Assembly (NCBI GenBank): GCA_934096985.1
Contig: CAKONC010000002.1
Coordinates: forward strand, 121,421-185,420
From: an uncultured Bacilli bacterium
Lineage (GTDB): Bacteria > Bacillota_I > Bacilli_A > RF39 > UBA660
Direction: 5' to 3'
Length of the DNA: 64,000 nucleotides
Shown: piece by piece, positions 664-51,137 of the stretch
Position numbering within the stretch: the stretch's first letter is position 1
Layout: the number at the start of each line of letters is the position of its first letter
The notes under the pieces: generated by a model
Database searches by the model: none
What the model was told of the DNA's origin: nothing
What the model saw: only the letters and a program-made list of their open reading frames with translations
Made by a program: the position numbers and the translations under genes

Positions 664-1170
664 ATGGTAATGAGTAAATATGATGAAGCTTATTTTGAAA
701 ATCTAACAATAAAAGCAAATATTATATATAAATATTTATACTATAATAGTCTTACTGATGATATGAAAGCGTCAATAACAGATTATTTAGATACTTATTT
801 TTCATATTATAAAAAATATACAAATATGAATGTCAGAGATGAAAATCTTTCTAGAATTTTTAGCATTTTAGAAGGTCCAATAAACGAAGCAAATAATCAA
901 TATAACTTATCATTAAATGATGGAAAACCTCACCCAGCAGTAGATATTATAAAGCAAAAATTAACAGAATTTTTTATGCAAATGGATAGTGAAAATGTAA
1001 GCGTAGCAAATTCATTAGACAAAGGTAAACAAAGAACACTAAATCCTCCGGGAATAAGTGGAATAAAACTATTTAATGATGAAAATGGATTTGCAAAATC
1101 ATTTATTATAATACTTGCTACAATACTAATTGGAATAATAATTGCCGTTTTAACTATTAAACTAAAATAA
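664..1170 (+). CDS. Hypothetical protein with a C-terminal transmembrane anchor
   Basis: 168-aa ORF with a hydrophobic C-terminus (FIIILATILIGIIIAVLTI). AGGAG at 657..661 favours the second ATG at 670 as the real start. I recognise no family. Confidence 0.5.
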   Translation: MVMSKYDEAYFENLTIKANIIYKYLYYNSLTDDMKASITDYLDTYFSYYKKYTNMNVRDENLSRIFSILEGPINEANNQYNLSLNDGKPHPAVDIIKQKLTEFFMQMDSENVSVANSLDKGKQRTLNPPGISGIKLFNDENGFAKSFIIILATILIGIIIAVLTIKLK

Positions 1171-2664: not shown

Positions 2665-3687
2665 CTATTTAATAAACATTGCATCCCCAAATGAAAAGAA
2701 ACGATAATTATTTTCTATTGCATGCTTATATGCATTTAATATGTTTTCTTTGCATGAAAACGCACTTACTAGCATTACTAAAGTACTTTTTGGTAAATGG
2801 AAATTTGTTATAAGGCCATCAATGGCCAAAAATTTATAACCTGGATAAATAAATATATTCGTGTTTTCATTGCAAGAAACAAACTTATGATACTTATTCA
2901 TAATTGCCTCAAGTGTTCTTGTAGAGGTAGTTCCTACTGCATATATTTTTCTTCCTTCTTCTTTTGCTTTATTTAATTTATCTGCTACATCTTGAGTCAT
3001 AATAAAATGTTCACTATGCATATGATGTTTAGTAATATCTTCTTCATTAACAGGTCTAAATGTTCCAAGTCCAACATGTAAAGTTACATATAATACTTCT
3101 ACTCCCATATTTTTAATTTCTTCTAAAAGTTCTTCAGTAAAATGAAGACCGGCAGTCGGAGCTGCAGCACTACCTAAATATTTTGCATAAACAGTTTGAT
3201 ACCTAGTTTGGTCTTTTAGACTTTCATGTATATATGGTGGAAGTGGCATTAAACCAATTTTTTCGATTTGTTCAATAAAAATGCCTTCATAAGAAAACTT
3301 AACATTTACTATTCCTTCCTCAAGTTTTTCTACTACTGTGCAGTAAAGAGTATCTGAAAAAGTTATTTTAGTGCCTTCATTTAACCTTTTAAATGGTCTT
3401 GATAAACATTGCCACATATCATTACCTAAATCTTTTAATAAAAGAAGCTCTATATGGGCATTAGTTTCTTCTTTCTTACCAAATATTCTTGCAGGAAGAA
3501 CCTTTGTATCATTTAAAACTAAAACATCTCCACTATGTAAATAAGAAGTTATATCTTTAAAAATTTTATCCTCAAGAGCACCAGTTTTTCTATCCATTAC
3601 AAGTAGTTTTGATTCACTACGATTTTTAATTGGAGTTTGTGCAATTAACTCTTCTGGTAAATTATAATCAAATTCATTTATATCCAT
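2665..3687 (-). CDS. queA: S-adenosylmethionine:tRNA ribosyltransferase-isomerase
   Basis: FDYNLPEELIAQTP start, GTTSTRTLE and HLPKSTL motifs. The track start at 3696 is a GTG inside the AGGTGA SD, so the ATG at 3687 (MDINEF) is preferred. Confidence 0.95.
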   Translation of the reverse strand: MDINEFDYNLPEELIAQTPIKNRSESKLLVMDRKTGALEDKIFKDITSYLHSGDVLVLNDTKVLPARIFGKKEETNAHIELLLLKDLGNDMWQCLSRPFKRLNEGTKITFSDTLYCTVVEKLEEGIVNVKFSYEGIFIEQIEKIGLMPLPPYIHESLKDQTRYQTVYAKYLGSAAAPTAGLHFTEELLEEIKNMGVEVLYVTLHVGLGTFRPVNEEDITKHHMHSEHFIMTQDVADKLNKAKEEGRKIYAVGTTSTRTLEAIMNKYHKFVSCNENTNIFIYPGYKFLAIDGLITNFHLPKSTLVMLVSAFSCKENILNAYKHAIENNYRFFSFGDAMFIK

Positions 3688-3736
3688 TTTCGTCACCTAA
3701 AAGATATTATAAATATATTTTACATTTTTGTCTATC

Positions 3737-3763
3737 AAAAAAAGAATGGATTATTTTCCATTC
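3737..3763 (-). terminator. Rho-independent terminator of ileS
   Basis: On the minus strand: GAATGGA-aaataa-TCCATTC followed by TTTTTTT. The ileS stop codon lies in the loop. Confidence 0.6.
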
Positions 3764-6700
3764 CTTTCAAGTTTAATGCCAACTTTATAATCATTTAAAG
3801 TTAAATCTTTATCAATTGAATCTACAAAATTAATTTCCGTAGCCAAAGTTTCATTTTTAACATACTCTAAATTATCTTTTATAGACTGAGCAAACTCTTC
3901 ATCAGCATTAACAGTAATCGTTATCCTATTTTCTATATCAAAGTTAAGTTCTTTTCTTATTGCTTGTACTTTTGATACAAATTCTCTAGCATTACCCTCT
4001 TTTTTAAGCTCATCAGTAATAACTGCATTAAGTATAACAAATTTGCCATTATCCATACCAATATCAAAGCCTTCTTTAGCACTATATTTTATATCAATTA
4101 AATCTTTATTAATTGCATAATCATTGCCATTAATATTTAATGAAATTTCTTTATCATTAATTAATAAATCAATATCCTCTTTACTTAACTTTCCTAATAA
4201 TGCTTGGTATTCTTTCATATTTTTGCCAAATACTTTACCTGCTTCTTTGAAATTAGGTTTAATTTCAAAATTCATATAAGTATTTACATCTTGAATATAT
4301 TTTACTTCTTTGACATTTAATTCCTCTTTTATTAAAGAAGTAAGTAAACCAATAATATCTTTATATTTTCCATCAATTAATACCTCTGATAAAGGTTGAC
4401 GTACTTTAATTTTATTTTCTTCACGAACATATCTTCCGATAGAAATTAAATCTCTTACTAAATCCATTTTTTCTTCTAAAGGGTTATCAATTAATTTTTC
4501 ATTGCAAACTGGATACTCTGCTAAATGAACAGAAGTTTCACCTGTTAAGTTTGTATAAATTTCTTCACTTACAAAAGGAGCAATTGGAGCTATTAGTTTG
4601 CATAATCCACTTAAAACTTCGTAAGTTGTTTTGTATACACTTTTTTTAGAATTATCAAGTTTGTTTCCCCAGAATCTATTACGATTACGTCTTATATACC
4701 AGTTAGATAAATCATCTGAAACAAATGATGTAATATATCTTGTAACCTTATTTAAATCATATTCATCGAATGCATTTCTAACATTTTTCACTAAATTATT
4801 ATATTTAGAAAGTAACCATTTATCTATTTCTTCACGTAAAGAATATTCAATTTCACATTCACTAATATTAATATTATCTACATTTGCATACATCTGGAAG
4901 AATGAATAAGTATTTTTTAAAGGATTTACAAATTTTGAATAAACTTCCTTGACACCATCCTCATCGAATTTAAGCGGAGTCCATACTGGAGAAGCATAAA
5001 GCATATACCATCTTATAGAATCAACACCATACTTTTCCATAATGGCTACAGGATCAATAATATTTCCAGTAGATTTACTCATCTTTTTGCCATTTTTATC
5101 AAGCATCATGTCATTTACAACAACATTTTTAAATGAAGACTTTCCACTTATTATTGTGCTTATTACAAGTAGAACGTAAAACCAACCACGAGTTTGATCA
5201 ATACCCTCTGCAATAAAATCTGCTGGGAAATGTTTATCAAACCACTCTTTATTTTCAAAAGGATAATGGCATTGTGCATAAGGCATTGAACCTGAATCAA
5301 ACCAAACATCAGCTACATCACTTACTCTATGCATTGTGCCACCACATGAACACTTCATTGTAATATTATCTACATATGGTCTATGTAAATCTATATCTTC
5401 ATATTTAAGTTCTTGGTCAGCTTTCTCAATTAATTCTTCACGAGAACCAATTACATCAAATTTACCACAATCATCACATACCCAAAATGGAAGTGGACAA
5501 CCCCAGTATCTATTTCTAGAAATTCCCCAGTCTACCATATTATCAAGCCAGTTACCAAATCTTTTTGTACCAACATACTGTGGATACCAATTGATTTTAT
5601 TATTTTCTTCGATTATTTTATCTTTATAATCAGTTGTTTTTACATACCACGCTGGCTTAGCAAAATAAATAAGTGGACTTTTACATCTCCAGCAATGAGG
5701 ATAGTCGTGCTCAATTTTTATTTTTTTAAATAATTTATCATTTTCTTTTAGCCATTTGATAATTGTTATTTCTAAGTCTTTATCAGTAACTAAAGTACCT
5801 TTCCAAGGACCAACTGTATATTTACCCGCAAGGTCTACACTTTGAGTCCAACCAAAGCCATTTTCTTGGCAAACTCTATTATCATCTTCTCCATATGCTG
5901 GTGCAATGTGAACAATACCAGTTCCGTCAGTAGATGTAACATAACTATCTGCAACTACTTCAAATGCTTTACCACCTTCAACAGTTGCAAATGGCATTAA
6001 TTGTTCATATTTAAGTCCTACTAAGTCAGTTCCTTTAAATGTTTCTAAAACTTTATAATCTTCACCTAAAACTTTATCCGCAAGGTCTTTACATAATATA
6101 AATTTATATCCCATAGATTGTGCTTTAATGTATTCATAATCCGGATTAACACATGCAGCAACATTATCAAGAAGTGTCCATGGTGTTGTAGTCCAAACAA
6201 GTAAGTATTCATCTTTATCAACTAATTTAAATGGAACAATTACCGTATTAACTGGATCTAATTGATATCCTTGGTCAACTTCAAACTTAGCAAGTTCTGT
6301 GCCACATCTTGGGCAATATGGAAGTATTTTATTGCTATGGTAAATAGCACCTTTTTTATGCATTTCTTTAAATAAGTACCATTCAGTTTCATGATAATCA
6401 TTTTCACAAGTAATATATGGATGCTCTTCATCAATAAATTGGCCCATCATATCAGTAACTTTTTTTACTTCACTAATATTTAAAGCTGTATTTTTTTTAC
6501 ATTCTTCAATAAACTTTTCAATTCCCATTGCTTCAATGTCTTTTTTGCCATTAATGCCTAATTTCTTTTCAACATTATACTCAATAGGAAGTCCGTTACA
6601 ATCAAGTCCAATTTTTCTATCAACTCTATATCCGTTCATAACATTATACTTACAAAAAGCATCTTTAATTGTTTTAGCAAATACATGATGAATTCCAGGT

Positions 6701-46327: not shown

Positions 46328-48091
46328 TTAAATATTATATTTTTTATTTTCTATACAATCATTAATTTTTTCAACAAACTTTTCTGTTGACATAGTTATA
46401 GTTTCAGGATTTCCAAATTTACGATAACTAATTTGTTTATTATTTACTTCATTATCTCCGATAATTAAAGTTATAGGCATTTTCCTAGTTTGACTTTCAC
46501 GCATTTTATATCCTAGTTTTTCATTTCTATCGTCAAGTTTAACTCTAATTTTATTTTCCTCTAAAATATTTTTAATCTCATAACAATAATCAAGATGAAG
46601 CTCATTATTAACTGGAATAATATTTACCTGCACTGGAGAAAGCCATAATGGGAATGCTCCTTTAGTTTCTTCGATAACAAATGCAGTAAATCTATCAAAT
46701 GTTCCAAAAATAGCTCTGTGTATTACTACTGGAACTTTTTTTTCACCTTTGTTATCAATGTATGATAAATCAAATCTTCTAGGAAGTAAAAAGTCTAATT
46801 GACAAGTTGATAAAGTAACCTCTGGTCCTACTGCAGGTTTTACTTCAACATCTAATTTTGGTCCATAAAATGCTGCTTCACCTTTTGCTTCAAAATAATC
46901 TACACCAAGTTCATCTAAAACTTCTCTTAATTTATTTTCAGCAGTATTCCACATTTCATCATCATCAAAATATTTTTCTTTATCTTCTTTATCTCTTAAT
47001 GATAATCTAAATTTATAGTTTTTAATACCAAAGTCTTTATATACATCTAGTATTAAGCTTACTACCTTTTTAAATTCATCACCAATTTGTTCTGGAGTGA
47101 CAAATAAATGGGCATCATTTTGACACATACATCTAACTCTTTCAAGGCCTTTAACAGCACCACTTGCTTCATATCTAAAGTCTGTAGCAAATTCTCCAAT
47201 TCTTATAGGAAGATCCCTATAAGAATGTAATTTATTTTTATAAATAAGCATATGATGAGGACAATTCATTGGTCTTAAAACAAATTCTTCTTCATCAACT
47301 TTCATCATTGGAAACATATTTTCTTTATAGTGATCCCAATGTCCACTTGTTTTATATAGATTTACTGTTCCAACGCATGGAGTGTATACGTGATTATATC
47401 CTAATCTTTGCTCTTTTTCATATATATAATTTTCTAATTGCTTTCTAATAATAGCACCATTTGGAAGCCATAAAGGCATACCGGCACCAACTAGTTCATC
47501 AGTCATAAATATTTCCAAATCTTTGCCAATTTTACGATGATCTCTTTGTTTTGCTTCCTCTATTTCATTTAAGCAATTATTTAAATCTTCTTCATTAGTA
47601 AAACATACACCATAAATTCTTTGAAGCATTTTGTTTTTAGCATCACCTTTCCAGTATGCACCACTAACTTTTAATAATTTAAAATATTTAAGCATTTTAA
47701 CATTGTCTACATGAGGTCCACGACATAAATCAGTAAAATCACCTTGTGAATATGTAGAAATAATCGTAGTATCTTCATCCATTCTACTAATTAAATCAAC
47801 CTTATATGGGTCATCTTTAAATTCTTTTAAAGCTTCTTCTTTACTTATTTCATTTCTAATAATCTTTTTACCATCTTTAGAGATTTTTTTCATTTCTTTT
47901 TCAATTTTTGGTAAATCCTCTTCAGTTAAAGTAACATCACCTAAATCAATATCATAATAAAAGCCATCTTCTATTACAGGTCCTACCCAAAACATTGCAT
48001 TTGGATATAAATGTTTTACTGCTTGTGCAAGTAAATGTGCACAGCTATGGTTTAATACGCTTAATTTTTCATCTTCTTTTATATTTATCAT
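46328..48091 (-). CDS. thrS: Threonine--tRNA ligase
   Basis: Editing-domain HSCAHLL and class II core motifs. The ATG at 48091 (MINIKEDE) follows GAAGGAGGAAATT, and the track start at 48106 is upstream of the SD. Confidence 0.95.
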   Translation of the reverse strand: MINIKEDEKLSVLNHSCAHLLAQAVKHLYPNAMFWVGPVIEDGFYYDIDLGDVTLTEEDLPKIEKEMKKISKDGKKIIRNEISKEEALKEFKDDPYKVDLISRMDEDTTIISTYSQGDFTDLCRGPHVDNVKMLKYFKLLKVSGAYWKGDAKNKMLQRIYGVCFTNEEDLNNCLNEIEEAKQRDHRKIGKDLEIFMTDELVGAGMPLWLPNGAIIRKQLENYIYEKEQRLGYNHVYTPCVGTVNLYKTSGHWDHYKENMFPMMKVDEEEFVLRPMNCPHHMLIYKNKLHSYRDLPIRIGEFATDFRYEASGAVKGLERVRCMCQNDAHLFVTPEQIGDEFKKVVSLILDVYKDFGIKNYKFRLSLRDKEDKEKYFDDDEMWNTAENKLREVLDELGVDYFEAKGEAAFYGPKLDVEVKPAVGPEVTLSTCQLDFLLPRRFDLSYIDNKGEKKVPVVIHRAIFGTFDRFTAFVIEETKGAFPLWLSPVQVNIIPVNNELHLDYCYEIKNILEENKIRVKLDDRNEKLGYKMRESQTRKMPITLIIGDNEVNNKQISYRKFGNPETITMSTEKFVEKINDCIENKKYNI

Positions 48092-48099
48092 AATTTCCT

Positions 48100-48285
48100 C
48101 CTTCAATAAAAAAACTCCCGCTTACGCAGGAGTGACTAAGCACGGTACCATCCTTTTTTTTACTTAATTTTTATAACGGTTTTAGCCGGGGTTCTTTTTC
48201 AAGACCAGTTCATGGGTAGTAAAAATATTTGTTCTTAAGTTATCTTTCACCATCATAACTTCGCTATTTAAGACTTAAAATACTT
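48100..48285 (-). promoter_or_regulatory. T-box leader (Thr specifier) controlling thrS
   Basis: Minus-strand read shows ...GATGGTGAAAG..., a candidate specifier ACU/ACC in TTTTACTACCCATGAACTGG, and the T-box motif AAGGATGGTACCGTGC. The terminator ACTCCTGCGTAAGCGGGAGTTTTTTT follows. Confidence 0.85.
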
Positions 48286-48352
48286 TCTTGTCCCAATCAA
48301 AACTTTTAAAACAAGCATATTATAGCACATTTTTTATACTTTTTTCAATATG

Positions 48353-48742
48353 TTACCTATTCTTTTTTAATATTAAATTTATAATTAATGCAATAGAATA
48401 TCCTATAAGAGCGCTACATATTATAATAAATAGAATTTCTTCATTTCTAAATCTATTTGCACAAAGTGAGAAAATAAATGCTATGCTTATGCAAATAGTA
48501 ACTGAAGATAAATAAATTGGAAAATACTTTTTATGTTCAAGTAACATCCTATTTTCTAATAGTTCATCTGTACTTTTTTCTAATACTTTCGAAAGTAATA
48601 ATAATTGTTCTGGATTCGGAGATGTCTGTCCTTGCTCCTAATTAGAAATAGTTTGTCTTGATACATTAAGTTTTTCCGCTAAAGATTCTTGTGAAAGTCC
48701 TTTGGCCTTTCTTAAACTAGATATATTGTTTCCTAAATTCAT
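48353..48742 (-). pseudogene. XRE-family HTH / C-terminal membrane protein interrupted by an in-frame TAG at the conserved Trp codon
   Basis: MNLGNNISSLRKAKGLSQESLAEKLNVSRQTISN*EQGQTSPNPEQLLLLSKVLEKSTDELLENRMLLEHKK..., continuing in frame into track ORF 48353..48547. The TAG at 48638..48640 replaces the W of the ISNWE motif. Confidence 0.65.
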
Positions 48743-48838
48743 ATTTTTTTCTTTCACATAATTTATAACATAAAATGTATTTACGTTTCTATATAAATTT
48801 TTTTAATTATGTCAAAATTATTTAACAATTAGTAAAAA

Positions 48839-49204: not shown

Positions 49205-49299
49205 TCATAATCACCACTTCTTTATATCTAATTATAACATTATATAAAGTAAAATTTCTATAAATTCATAGCATATTTTGTCTTGTTTTGTCGGAGTGC

Positions 49300-49327
49300 T
49301 TGCAATTAGTTTTTTCTTATATATAAT
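49300..49327 (+). promoter_or_regulatory. Strong sigma-A-type promoter in front of the small hydrophobic ORF
   Basis: TTGCAA-16 nt-TATAAT. The predicted start site falls at about 49334..49336, which is the first bases of the left inverted repeat. Confidence 0.5.
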
Positions 49328-49335
49328 ACTTACTT

Positions 49336-49358
49336 GAACGTGCAGGAATGGCGTTACC
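49336..49358. repeat. Left arm of the imperfect inverted repeat bracketing the small ORF
   Basis: GAACGTGCAGGAATGGCGTTACC is complementary to 49594..49618 (9 bp, internal loop, 7-8 bp). Confidence 0.6.
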
Positions 49359-49419
49359 TTCTTAATTTTTTTGGGGTTTTGGGCAACCAAGATTTTACTG
49401 GAGAAAGGAGGAACGGTAA

Positions 49420-49572
49420 ATGAGCAAGAAGAAACTCATAAGAGTACTATTTTTGATTATACTTTTACAGTTTGGGGTTTATTATCCTGAATTTGCAAAA
49501 GGCGCCATCCGTATTGTAAAAGAATTTATACAGTTTTTAAAAGGACTTGTATTTATTCTTTTATTTGGATAA
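49420..49572 (+). CDS. 50-aa hydrophobic peptide, type I toxin-like candidate (below the ORF-track cutoff)
   Basis: GGAGG lies 8 nt upstream of the ATG. Product: MSKKKLIRVLFLIILLQFGVYYPEFAKGAIRIVKEFIQFLKGLVFILLFG. Confidence 0.5.
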   Translation: MSKKKLIRVLFLIILLQFGVYYPEFAKGAIRIVKEFIQFLKGLVFILLFG

Positions 49573-49593
49573 GCGCCAACTATCTAAAAAATA

Positions 49594-49618
49594 GGTAACG
49601 TGATATCTTGCACGTTCC
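49594..49618. repeat. Right arm of the imperfect inverted repeat bracketing the small ORF
   Basis: GGTAACGTGATATCTTGCACGTTCC, 22 nt after the small-ORF stop. Confidence 0.6.
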
Positions 49619-49648
49619 TTAATTATAATATAACATTTATTTATACAT

Positions 49649-50038
49649 TTATGCAAGATGTTTAATTTTAATTATTAAAAATAGCTTACTTTTTTTACTA
49701 ATATTTAAAGTAATTACACTATTAATTTTTTCATTCAACATATTTTGAAGTGCAGTTACTTCGCCTTTAGATAAAGATATATCAAAAAATGAAAATTTCT
49801 TATCTAAATATTCAACACTATCAATAAAGTCTTTTATAGATATATATTTAGATTTATTAACCAAACTATTTGATAATGTTATTCTACATAATCTGGAAAC
49901 TGCATTATAATAATCATCAGTGACACCTTTTTGACTAAAAGCATCATAAAGTGTATCAAAATATATTTGCCACTCATTATTTGATATTTCCATCGAAGGT
50001 AAATTTAAACCTAAACAATATGCCTCTAATTCATACAT
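49649..50038 (-). CDS. Hypothetical protein
   Basis: 129-aa ORF with no convincing SD and no recognisable family. Confidence 0.35.
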   Translation of the reverse strand: MYELEAYCLGLNLPSMEISNNEWQIYFDTLYDAFSQKGVTDDYYNAVSRLCRITLSNSLVNKSKYISIKDFIDSVEYLDKKFSFFDISLSKGEVTALQNMLNEKINSVITLNISKKSKLFLIIKIKHLA

Positions 50039-50162
50039 AATTTTACTTATTACATCCTCTTTTGAATTAAGAACTTACCATTTAAATACGATAATTATCG
50101 CACATTTTAGTGAAAACACCAAATCACTGTAAAGTAATCTATAAATGCATACTCAAAAAGTA

Positions 50163-50987
50163 TTATTTATTTTTTATATAGTCACAAATAATCTTAACAA
50201 CATTTTCATTGCCTATTTTTGCATCAATACAAAGGTCATAATTATCTTTGTCACCCCATACTTTATTTGCTATTGCACTATAATATTTTGCTCTAGATTT
50301 ATCTGATTTAATTATATGTTTTCTTGCATCAGAGGCATTATCTTTATAATTTTTCATAACATTATTTATTTTATAATCCATCGAAGCATATATAAATATT
50401 TTAACTAAATTTTTATTTTCTTTCAAAATATAATCAAGTATTATATTTGCAACTGCTCCAGATATCTGTGATATAGTGGAAAGCATAGTTTTGCCAGTAG
50501 CTTGTAAAAATCTTTCATATACCGTATATCCTATAGAGCCTAGTGAAAAGCAACTACAAATTTTCAAATATGAACTTCCCATTTCAATAATCTTACTATC
50601 ACTTGTAAATAGTGTAATAAACCATTTTGAACCAAATATACCAAATAATAAAAATATTACATAAATACAAATACTTAAAAATATTCCATTTCCCGCAATA
50701 ATATTTACCTTCTCTTTATCTTTTTCTCCCAAGGATTTAGATAATATTGCATTTAACCCCACGCCAGTTCCAACACCAATAGCAATAATCATAATTTGCA
50801 CTGGAAAAGCATAAGTTAAAGCTTGATTAGCTATAGCACCATTTTCACCCATGTTAGCCACGAAAATACTATCAATGACATTATATAGTGTTTGCAAAAC
50901 CATTGATATAATCATAGGAAGTCCCATTTTTAAGATTAACTTATTCATAGGTGTTATAGCCATTTTATTTTGCTCTTTTTCTTTCAT
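50163..50987 (-). pseudogene. In-frame chimera: N-terminal half of a MATE efflux transporter fused to the C-terminal third of a cytidylate-kinase-like protein
   Basis: Residues 1-185 are MATE-like (LPMIISMVLQTLYNVIDSIFV...GAVANIILD). Residues from about 186 on (YILKENKNLVKIFIYASMDY...DKSRAKYYSAIANKVWGDKDNYDLCID) match the tail of the Cytidylate_kin2 family. The junction is near 50430. Confidence 0.6.
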
Positions 50988-51010
50988 AATTCCTTCTTAT
51001 ATTGACAAGA

Positions 51011-51048
51011 AAAAAAGGCGCAACCCATAAACTGGATTTACGCCTTTT
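51011..51048 (-). terminator. Rho-independent terminator
   Basis: On the minus strand: an extended GGCG...CGCC stem followed by TTTTTTT. Confidence 0.55.
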
Positions 51049-51137
51049 CTTAAAAGCCACTCGTCTTACGAAAAAAATTATATAATTTTTTTAAAATTTT
51101 TTCAAGAATAAAATTTTTTATTATAATTTTAGACCGG

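Follow-up and report, generated by a model that had tools for sequence, protein, structure and literature searches.

A probable new family of type I toxin-antitoxin modules in uncultured human-gut Bacilli

Does a short island of less AT-rich DNA in the genome of an uncultured gut bacterium hold a toxin gene under RNA control, or is it a miniature inverted-repeat element that carries a reading frame by accident? The question was raised by a first-pass annotation, which had read the island as type I toxin-like and kept the miniature element as its alternative. The island lies in a window of 64,000 nucleotides (GenBank assembly GCA_934096985.1, contig CAKONC010000002.1, positions 121,421 to 185,420) and does stand out in composition, with a G+C fraction of up to 0.39 (49350..49449) against 0.15-0.30 around it. 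The promoter (matched in a consensus scan), the 5' segment with its inverted partner, the CCTTCT stretch immediately after the 5' segment, the GGAGG Shine-Dalgarno sequence (SD) and the 50-aa open reading frame (ORF), whose translation matches exactly, were all located in the sequence where they had been placed (Table 1); only the distance from the stop codon to the inverted partner had to be corrected, from 22 to 21 nt. One neighbour changed its identity, as the flanking 129-aa ORF that had been called unknown is really the C-terminal remnant of a 307-aa gene, intact in L022 and L023. The conserved module to which the window island belongs, as one of its copies, measures ~410 bp (49254..49664). 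The module family, which is multi-copy, hosted by uncultured human-gut Bacilli and without an earlier description, is probably, as far as its sequence allows one to judge, a new type I toxin-antitoxin family in which a 3' antisense partner of the Gram-positive type is combined with an end helix like that of hok and AapA mRNAs.

Table 1. Features of the module copy in the window (window positions; + and - give the strand).
Feature	Position	Strand	Basis or remark
Upstream element TCATAGCATATTTTGTCTTGTTTTGTCGGAGTGC	49266..49299	+	5' of the sense promoter; 70-99% conserved (96 unique modules)
Sense (putative toxin) promoter TTGCAA-16-TATAAT	49300..49327	+	Consensus scan; predicted start ~49334-49336
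Predicted toxin mRNA, minimum extent	49334..49621	+	Folding; ends predicted
5' arm of long-range helix GAACGTGCAGGAATGGCGTTACC	49336..49358	+	Pairs with 49594..49618
Anti-SD CCTTCTT	49357..49363	+	Directly 3' of the 5' arm; its UCUU is paired to the AGGA within the SD in the minimum free energy (MFE) structure
SD GGAGG	49407..49411	+	Sequence; 8 nt before the ATG at 49420; columns (nearly) invariant in the alignment
ORF MSKKKLIRVLFLIILLQFGVYYPEFAKGAIRIVKEFIQFLKGLVFILLFG, 50 aa	49420..49572	+	ORF list; basic N-terminus, helices 3-21 and 23-49, break at Pro23
Predicted antisense RNA, ~130 nt	49490..49620	-	Same fold in 14/14 representatives
Terminator-like long hairpin	49497..49577	-	Base GGCGCUUAUCC (49577..49567) pairs with GGAUGGCGCC (49510..49501), then UUUU (49500..49497)
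Variable linker	49578..49593	both	Between stop-region helix and 3' arm; predicted single-stranded in mRNA and antisense RNA
3' arm of long-range helix GGTAACGTGATATCTTGCACGTTCC	49594..49618	+	Pairs with the 5' arm
Antisense 5' hairpin	49594..49620	-	Near copy of the mRNA 5' arm sequence
Antisense promoter	49627..49656	-	-35 TTGCAT 49656..49651, 18-nt spacer, -10 TATATT 49632..49627

From human-gut metagenomes and seven species-level genomes, 106 full copies of the module were recovered. Their host genomes are named as uncultured Bacilli or as 'Mycoplasma sp. CAG:472', bins that presumably belong to the GTDB order RF39. A genome carries two to four of them, among which are several diverged paralogues per small genome, at intergenic places whose contexts are unrelated, and the distribution is both multi-copy and lineage-restricted; within the window itself, no further copy was found with up to three mismatches allowed. 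The sites are ordinary intergenic ones in chromosomal, housekeeping contexts, the ORF usually runs in the direction opposed to the flanking genes, and at the site of the window copy the module is kept in all sister strains. No copy was found in the plasmid, phage and viral collections searched, and no recurrent partner gene, transposase, or gene for immunity, processing or export was found among the genes that flank the copies. The ORF is intact at 48-52 aa in ~90% of the 106 modules, while ~10% are disrupted, the decayed copies showing premature stops, frameshifts, loss of the SD or of the start codon, and internal deletions. A scan against Rfam at permissive thresholds gave a thrS T-box and chance-level matches, none of them credible for the module.

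The first-pass annotation had made its reading depend on a frame that is conserved in homologues, and the frame is indeed held in five diverged subtypes, with a dN/dS of 0.31-0.47 within subtypes and dN below dS in 221 of 232 pairs; the ORF is therefore under purifying selection and truly coding. The 50 distinct peptides (48-52 aa) keep the same layout at only 27-44% identity between the other subtypes and the window peptide. AlphaFold2 predicts two helices (pLDDT 87.8), which are hydrophobic or amphipathic, with an amphipathic C-terminal half and a strongly hydrophobic C-terminus, and the model suggests a membrane peptide of a two-helix type. Pfam, NCBIfam and PADLOC gave no credible match for any of the five peptide subtypes, and searches by profile through 5.8 billion and 1.84 billion proteins returned the family itself alone, with no homology to a known toxin. 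In a widespread allele the membrane segment is read in another frame, which fits attenuation but also a function other than toxicity. An upstream ORF in the 5' UTR (MNVQEWRY...) was considered and set aside, as it would begin no later than the predicted start of transcription and is not conserved in frame.

The mRNA that would carry this ORF has a strong structure of its own. The hexamers of the sense promoter are ~99% conserved in the family and its spacer 30-70%. RNAfold, the check that had been proposed at the outset, folds 49334..49625 at -95.4 kcal/mol with both ends paired (z-score -7.8; none of 200 dinucleotide shuffles as stable), and since this architecture recurs in 106 related copies, the pattern goes beyond chance. 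Among 15 representatives the individual MFE structure closes the ends in every case (z -5 to -9.6), and RNAalifold retains the end helix. Covariation in the end-pairing had also been proposed as a check, and the pairing proved to be conserved through compensatory and G·U changes: 93.3% of cells in 52 arm combinations are paired, against 30-47% with the partner slid, and five pairs show double changes, with 24 double-change cells that 0 of 500 shuffles reached. With five aberrant arms set aside, there are 72 G·U cells and only about one A·C cell, which marks the end helix as one of the plus-strand RNA and that RNA as the object of selection. Five arm variants have half of the end helix broken with their ORFs still intact, and one variant 5' arm pairs with the start codon, not with the 3' arm. 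In most other copies the mRNA probably runs ~55 nt further than the extent given in Table 1, to a predicted terminator hairpin in which the antisense -35 hexamer is embedded; the window copy is without a good equivalent of this downstream terminator.

The same annotation had regarded the end-pairing as a lock on translation, and this part of its reading was not supported by modelling. In all subtypes the SD is largely paired (unpaired probability 0.15-0.41 by partition function in 84 mRNAs), and its unpaired probability goes from 0.31 in the full mRNA to 0.20 when the 3' arm is taken away and to 0.23 when the 5' arm is. As the SD is mostly paired regardless of the arms, the end helix is not a translational lock in silico, and the modelling points instead to the local anti-SD, whose proposed pairing with the SD is present in the MFE structure. 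Exposure of the SD by antisense binding was likewise rejected, the unpaired probability falling from 0.31 to 0.20, and no translatable state was found among the modelled full, arm-deleted and antisense-bound mRNAs.

A conserved minus-strand promoter and a structure specific to the minus strand together predict an antisense partner that had gone unseen in the first reading. The promoter has an extended -10 TG (49635..49634), the variable base being the 'n' of TGnTATATT, and its hexamers and TG are 80-99% conserved in 90 modules, which were retrieved by a pattern at the 5' end and so were not selected for this region; it is the most conserved part of the module. In all subtypes the predicted RNA folds as a 5' hairpin, a linker and a long hairpin with a U-run, and its complementarity to the mRNA extends over the 3' arm, the 3' UTR and about the last 24 codons of the ORF (~49497 to 49572). 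Of the cells in the alignment of the minus strand 88.7% pair, a share that drops to 35-50% on sliding, and six pairs show double changes. The 5' hairpin is stabler on the minus than on the plus strand in 27 of 32 distinct arms (-10.7 vs -7.5 kcal/mol), with the arm type of the window among the five exceptions (-8.6 minus, -9.2 plus), and the base helix of the terminator is stabler there in 27 of 28 distinct versions (-16.6 vs -13.9 kcal/mol). One terminator pair is U·G in 54/54 sequences, where the plus strand would have C·A. These antisense helices were named by hand and then counted; from the MAFFT antisense alignment RNAalifold obtained no more than the 5' hairpin's core, since the terminators of the subtypes are not aligned in register.

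A U-rich tract follows the terminator hairpin in all five subtypes, with only four U in the window copy. In the window the 5' hairpin is itself followed by U6 and is terminator-like on the minus strand, and a short RNA of ~35 nt is thereby possible as well for this copy. As a general antisense terminator the U6 was rejected, since it is not conserved in other subtypes, and the hairpin inside the ORF was favoured. The linker between the two hairpins differs in sequence between subtypes and between copies; since it is modelled as single-stranded in both RNAs, first contact and the specificity of a pair may have their seat there. Judged on promoter and structure, a convergent antisense RNA gene is very probably present.

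How do these findings bear on other explanations of the island? Dispersed copies with fairly sharp common boundaries at different intergenic sites of one genome, and the existence of truncated copies, are what one would expect of a MITE-like element, in which the inverted repeats would be recognition sites of a transposase and the ORF incidental. However, the conserved unit extends beyond the inverted repeat on both sides, so that the repeats lie ~70 nt and 45-80 nt inside its ends; the arms change in the manner of an RNA helix, through substitutions that are compensatory or give G·U pairs; conservation of the ORF shows in a dN/dS below 0.5; and there is neither an associated transposase nor a signal of target-site duplication in the flanks (longest shared word 7.42, against 7.34 in mismatched pairs). 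The alternative of the first-pass annotation is thus extremely improbable. The same low standing falls to the view of the plus-strand transcript as a structured RNA, either non-coding or cis-regulatory, with an untranslated ORF: a very strong, conserved structure and an SD that is largely occluded in all modelled states would suit it, but ORF length and frame are held across subtypes of such low identity, dN stays below dS in nearly all pairs (221/232), a consensus SD is conserved at optimal spacing, and Rfam has no matching family.

Two further explanations accept the peptide and give it another role. The N-terminus, MSKKK followed by a hydrophobic run, is signal-like, and the peptide might be exported, with its amphipathic C-terminal half as an extracellular antimicrobial or signalling peptide. 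No signal-peptidase-type cleavage motif is evident in the sequences read by eye, though, the peptide ends in a strongly hydrophobic C-terminus, genes for immunity, processing or export do not recur beside the module, and antisense control and mRNA end-closure are not known as features of bacteriocin loci; export in this sense is very unlikely. Somewhat better placed, while still unlikely, is a non-toxic small membrane protein, for example one that regulates or that forms part of a membrane complex, encoded by a structured mRNA under antisense control and without any role in addiction. Purifying selection on a peptide that resembles no known toxin, housekeeping contexts on the chromosome with no plasmid, phage or viral copy found, and the copy that every sister strain keeps at the same site all agree with it. 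What speaks against it is the spread of several diverged paralogues over unrelated contexts of a small genome, the decay of ~10% of copies, the absence of a conserved partner gene, and a layered repression (occluded SD, closed ends and a strong convergent antisense promoter) that is typical of toxic products.

The type I reading is the best supported one: it retains, from its first form, the coding ORF and the conserved end-pairing, it gains the predicted antisense RNA, and it loses, in the models, the end helix as a lock on the SD. The number of copies per genome, their decay, the usual orientation of the ORF against its neighbours and the arm variant that pairs with the start codon are all typical of such modules. 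Points that weigh against it are the lack of homology to any known toxin, the SD that stays mostly paired in every modelled form, the run of only four U after the terminator hairpin of the window copy, the intact ORFs beside a half-broken end helix, and the allele read in another frame. The features of the class that can be found in the sequence are a small hydrophobic coding ORF, a predicted overlapping antisense gene and a sequestered SD. We propose that the module is self-contained, with two convergent promoters ~300 bp apart. From the plus promoter would come an mRNA of ~290 nt (~345 nt in most other copies) that codes for the two-helix membrane peptide, its ribosome-binding site being occluded by the local anti-SD beside the 5' arm; once transcription is complete, the first ~25 nt would pair with a segment ~20 nt past the stop codon to give a compact closed mRNA. 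From the minus promoter would come the ~130-nt antisense RNA, which would start as a hairpin like the 5' arm, end in the terminator hairpin inside the ORF, and form a full complement to the 3' arm, the 3' UTR and the ORF's distal half. By pairing, the two RNAs may keep the SD occluded and lead to cleavage of the duplex by RNase III, as for txpA/RatA and bsrG/SR4, and the peptide would be made only once the antisense RNA falls. We infer that both RNAs are transcribed, and likewise their ends, their interaction, the role of RNase III and the toxicity of the peptide.

In its predicted layout the module matches those type I families of Gram-positive bacteria that have their antisense RNA at the 3' side and reaching into the ORF (PMC8594479). 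The four systems bsrG/SR4, txpA/RatA, bsrE/SR5 and yonT/SR6 of Bacillus subtilis resemble the module in that they join a small hydrophobic peptide to a convergent antisense RNA of ~100-200 nt, whose overlap takes in the toxin mRNA's 3' end and a portion of the ORF (PMC8594479; PMC5848175), the antisense RNA of the module being a predicted one. A short helix partly sequesters the SD in these systems as in the module, and the SD stays sequestered with the antisense RNA bound, for SR4 by experiment (PMC3834814) and for the module in the model. The B. subtilis four are found on prophage-like elements, whereas the module occupies ordinary chromosomal intergenic sites, and there is no similarity of peptide or RNA sequence between them (Rfam to E 10, Pfam, NCBIfam and profile searches). 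The antisense 5' end mimics the mRNA 5' end in the module, unlike in these four. We know of no description of a 5'-3' closing helix for the bsrG, txpA, bsrE or yonT mRNAs.

Such a closure of the full-length mRNA by a 5'-3' interaction, with an occluded SD, is shared with hok/Sok of Enterobacteria and aapA1/IsoA1 of Helicobacter pylori (PMC5416894; PMC8594479). There, however, the antisense RNA falls inside the mRNA's 5' part and the SD becomes open on 3' trimming, whereas the predicted antisense gene of the module is on the 3' side and removal of an arm of its covarying long-distance helix does not open the SD in silico. The module is also without a mok-like overlapping leader ORF of conserved frame, its peptides are unrelated (no HOK_GEF or other Pfam match), and its host lineage is different. 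AapA/IsoA systems have a peptide of ~30 aa and an antisense RNA inside the mRNA over the start of the ORF, and are restricted to Helicobacter and Campylobacter; the module has 50 aa, a predicted antisense RNA over the 3' half, and AT-rich gut Bacilli as hosts. A relationship to hok or AapA was thus rejected on the side of the antisense gene and on the unrelated peptides. Fst/RNAII (par of pAD1) and SprA1/SprA1as are, like the module, Firmicute systems with convergent toxin and antitoxin genes, a common terminator region and a 5' structure that limits translation (PMC8594479 in part). In them the ORF is no part of the overlap, and the functional interaction takes place beyond the overlap (PMC8594479), in contrast to the ~24 codons predicted to be overlapped in the module, and their peptides of ~30-33 aa are unrelated to that of the module.

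Why should an antitoxin begin with a copy of the mRNA's 5' arm? We speculate, as a tentative idea that is rather to be doubted than expected, on a three-way competition between RNA segments of a kind without description for type I systems, in which the 5'-arm copy carried by the antitoxin displaces the 5' arm of the mRNA from its 3' arm. A closed, nuclease-resistant and silent mRNA would in this way be opened into a duplex with its ends exposed, a possible target for destruction by RNase III and by 5'-end-dependent RNases, and the linker would set which antitoxin matches which toxin among the paralogues in one genome. If true, this would make the end helix a device for stability and antitoxin gating, not for locking translation, and would join the Gram-negative (hok/AapA) and the Gram-positive (SR4/RatA) solutions in one element.

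Apart from that idea, it is unusual that a 5'-3' closing helix, as in hok and aapA1, stands together with a predicted 3'-convergent antitoxin of the Bacillus kind, and this makes the role of end closure testable in a new setting. A validated family in these gut Bacilli would bring the type I class to a new lineage, and two overlapping RNAs, each with strand-specific covariation in its structure, offer a worked RNA example. Gene callers overlook the module, and neither Pfam nor Rfam contains it; the annotation of gut metagenomes would improve with a covariance model, and module copies could serve as strain markers.

A last observation concerns the element upstream of the sense promoter. In the alignments and module sequences most family members have here CATGTC-TTATTTT-GACATG-TTTTGTC, a hairpin with a T-run that is degenerate in the window copy and that could insulate the toxin promoter against read-through.

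The ~410-bp module at 49254..49664 is best explained as a type I toxin-antitoxin locus, a model that we consider probable on comparative evidence from both strands and that bears out the toxin-like reading of the first-pass annotation. The features that the annotation had placed at 49300..49620 are all present in the sequence (see table), in an island whose G+C content reaches 0.39 against a background of 0.15-0.30. As it had also proposed, the two ends of the RNA pair when 49334..49625 is folded with RNAfold (-95.4 kcal/mol; z-score -7.8, with no dinucleotide shuffle matching the native energy). Similarity to other loci stops at 49254 and at 49664-49675, so the conserved unit is wider than the inverted repeat. 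No second copy was found within the window.

Features of the module in the window and of its predicted antisense RNA
Feature	Position	Strand	Basis
Sense promoter, TTGCAA-16-TATAAT	49300..49327	+	sequence
5' segment GAACGTGCAGGAATGGCGTTACC, then CCTTCT	49336..49358	+	sequence
Shine-Dalgarno (SD) GGAGG, 8-nt spacing to ATG	49407..49411	+	sequence
50-codon ORF, translation as in the first-pass annotation	49420..49572	+	ORF list
Inverted partner GGTAACGTGATATCTTGCACGTTCC	49594..49618	+	sequence
Predicted antisense RNA	about 49620 to 49490	-	promoter and fold comparison
Antisense part 1: 5' hairpin, complement of the 3' arm		-	fold prediction
Antisense part 2: variable single-stranded linker		-	fold prediction
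Antisense part 3: long hairpin, G+C-rich base linking stop-codon region to mid-ORF, then U-rich tract		-	fold prediction

Judged by its conservation, the ORF is a real gene. The reading frame is kept in homologues that fall into five peptide subtypes, 27-44% identical to the window peptide and each of 48-52 aa. All are built alike: the N-terminus is basic and is followed by a hydrophobic helix, a Y-(Y/N)-(P/x)-(E/D) turn, an amphipathic segment and a tail that is again hydrophobic. Values of dN/dS within subtypes range from 0.31 to 0.47, dN being below dS in 221 of 232 pairs, and AlphaFold2, given an alignment of 49 sequences, predicts two helices, at residues 3-21 and 23-49 (pLDDT 87.8). Models from Pfam, NCBIfam and PADLOC match none of the subtypes; a profile search of 5.8 billion proteins returned 117 clusters, all unnamed, and HMMER, run exhaustively over 1.84 billion representatives, gave 14 matches, all family members. 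The ORF is disrupted in about one module in ten, by lesions that include a premature stop (after 7 codons), frameshifts, a missing SD or start codon, and an internal deletion equivalent to 49501..49619.

A widespread subtype B allele (about 50 contigs per cluster; region L027 107..246, proteins P0098, P0099, P0101 and P0105) encodes its membrane segment in another frame through two compensating frameshifts (…IKTLVFMHTISDLFMGLDK… in place of the usual …IKFEFLCILFLICFYNLDK…) and may be an attenuated toxin maintained by selection. The gene calls of P0056 and P0113 (82-84 aa) run past the subtype B TGA stop, apparently because code 4 was applied to 'Mycoplasma' bins; the long ORFs of the window are uninterrupted under code 11.

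Contigs of human-gut metagenomes carry the exact peptide and its near relatives, in several gene contexts that are unrelated to one another. When one genome per species was scanned with an exact pattern, 15 loci came up, spread over seven genomes with up to four copies each; the records are titled 'uncultured Bacilli', 'Mycoplasma sp. CAG:472', 'uncultured Mycoplasma sp.' and 'Bacillales bacterium UBA6448', and we take these bins to belong to GTDB order RF39. About 75 further copies were retrieved from metagenomes with a 5'-end pattern. The whole set comprised 106 full modules, among which 84 mRNAs and 52 combinations of arms were distinct; searches of viral contigs, phage records and plasmid records found no copy. 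The genes next to the modules are varied, most of them housekeeping; the downstream one is almost always convergent with the module ORF, so that transcription running through from it would supply further antisense RNA. In many cases a module is placed tail-to-tail with a member of a paralogous family of large N-terminally anchored proteins ending …GGTGTSxxPYHIG, and the two sometimes form tandem gene-plus-module repeats (L012 1099..2628 and 3171..4715; L026, L053, L071).

On the plus strand, all 15 representative mRNAs, each folded alone, close their 5' and 3' ends (z -5 to -9.6), and the helix is retained in the RNAalifold consensus. Counted on the family alignment (52 sequences), 93.3% of the cells of this two-part end helix are paired; sliding the partner column lowers this to 30-47%. 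Covariation is seen as double-sided changes in five pairs (24 cells), a value reached by none of 500 shuffles. Most often a G-C pair has changed to G·U; with five aberrant arms left out, G·U cells number 72 and A·C cells about one. G·U pairs are meaningful in the plus-strand RNA only, so the target of selection cannot be a repeat that acts at the DNA level or is recognised by a protein. The other reading offered by the first-pass annotation, a miniature inverted-repeat element, is not supported; module flanks gave no signal of target-site duplication.

The end helix had been proposed to lock translation, a role that modelling speaks against: the SD is unpaired with a probability of 0.31 with both arms, 0.20 and 0.23 in the arm-deleted forms, and 0.20 with the antisense-bound region blocked. 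With occlusion thus much the same, the helix more likely protects the mRNA ends or gates antisense access. No translatable conformation was found among the modelled mRNA states. In the proposed mechanism, the local anti-SD would occlude the SD and keep the mRNA silent, and antisense RNA would pair with it over about 130 nt, the duplex being cleaved by RNase III by analogy with txpA/RatA and bsrG/SR4 (PMC3531473, PMC3834814). Five arm variants lose half of the end helix: the variant 5' arm GCUGGUCAUGACGCUCUC (L120, L139, L142, L150, L151) no longer pairs with the second half of the 3' arm, and its new 5' segment, UGGUCAU, pairs instead with AUGACCA at the start codon of its own ORF. This suggests that the 5' region has been selected for repressing translation.

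A convergent antisense gene is predicted on the minus strand. Downstream of the 3' arm lies TTGCAT-18-TATATT with an extended -10 TG, 80-99% conserved (the variable base is the n of TGnTATATT) in modules that were retrieved through their 5' end, a sampling that did not depend on this region. The predicted RNA folds alike in all subtypes, and its 5' hairpin, being complementary to the 3' arm, nearly duplicates the 5' arm of the mRNA. The terminator base is stabler on the minus strand in 27 of 28 distinct versions (-16.6 vs -13.9 kcal/mol) and the 5' hairpin in 27 of 32 (-10.7 vs -7.5 kcal/mol); the window's arm type is among the five exceptions (-8.6 minus, -9.2 plus, about equal), so that this asymmetry stems from other subtypes. 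Pairing holds in 88.7% of the cells of the minus-strand alignment and drops to 35-50% on sliding, with double changes in six pairs; one pair is U·G in 54 of 54 sequences, its plus-strand equivalent being a C·A mismatch. A plus-strand terminator with the antisense -35 inside its stem, (AT)GCAAG-loop-CTTG(C/T)AT plus T-run, is present in many copies, but the window copy has no good version of it. Most copies also have a hairpin and T-run upstream of the sense -35 (CATGTC-N7-GACATG-TTTTGTC; degenerate in the window), which may insulate the sense promoter.

With the predicted antisense RNA on the 3' side over the ORF, the gene layout matches that of the Gram-positive TxpA/RatA, BsrG/E/H and YonT systems (PMC8594479), and a long-distance 5'-3' helix is what characterises hok and aapA1 mRNAs (PMC5416894). 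Since the module has no sequence homology to any of these, we regard it as a new family, hybrid in architecture, within a known class. We found no literature description of type I systems in its host lineage.

Around the module, the left neighbour is dgkA as annotated (Pfam DAGK_prokar). The unknown 129-aa ORF reported on the right is what remains, at the C-terminal end, of a 307-aa gene; L022/L023 have this gene intact. Decayed module copies adjoin the intact gene there (683..1000) and in L083, with a shortened SD region and the deletion equivalent to 49501..49619; L083 also has ATG changed to AAG. Farther left, thrS (46328..48106, minus) is preceded by a T-box leader (48125..48309, minus; 81.5 bits, E 2e-17, below the Rfam gathering score of 93). 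Between thrS and dgkA, an XRE-type HTH gene (48353..48757, minus) is split into ORFs of 39 and 64 aa, as it is split in L018 and L019; it is whole (129 aa) in sister strains L013 and L015-L017. Starting ~70 nt past the module, 49734..51094 (1.36 kb) is missing from sister strains L013-L021; it is a patchwork of gene remnants, namely the tail of the 307-aa gene (ORF 49649..50038) and a 274-aa ORF (50163..50987) whose N-terminal part is MatE and whose C-terminal part is cytidylate-kinase-like, the two being fused.
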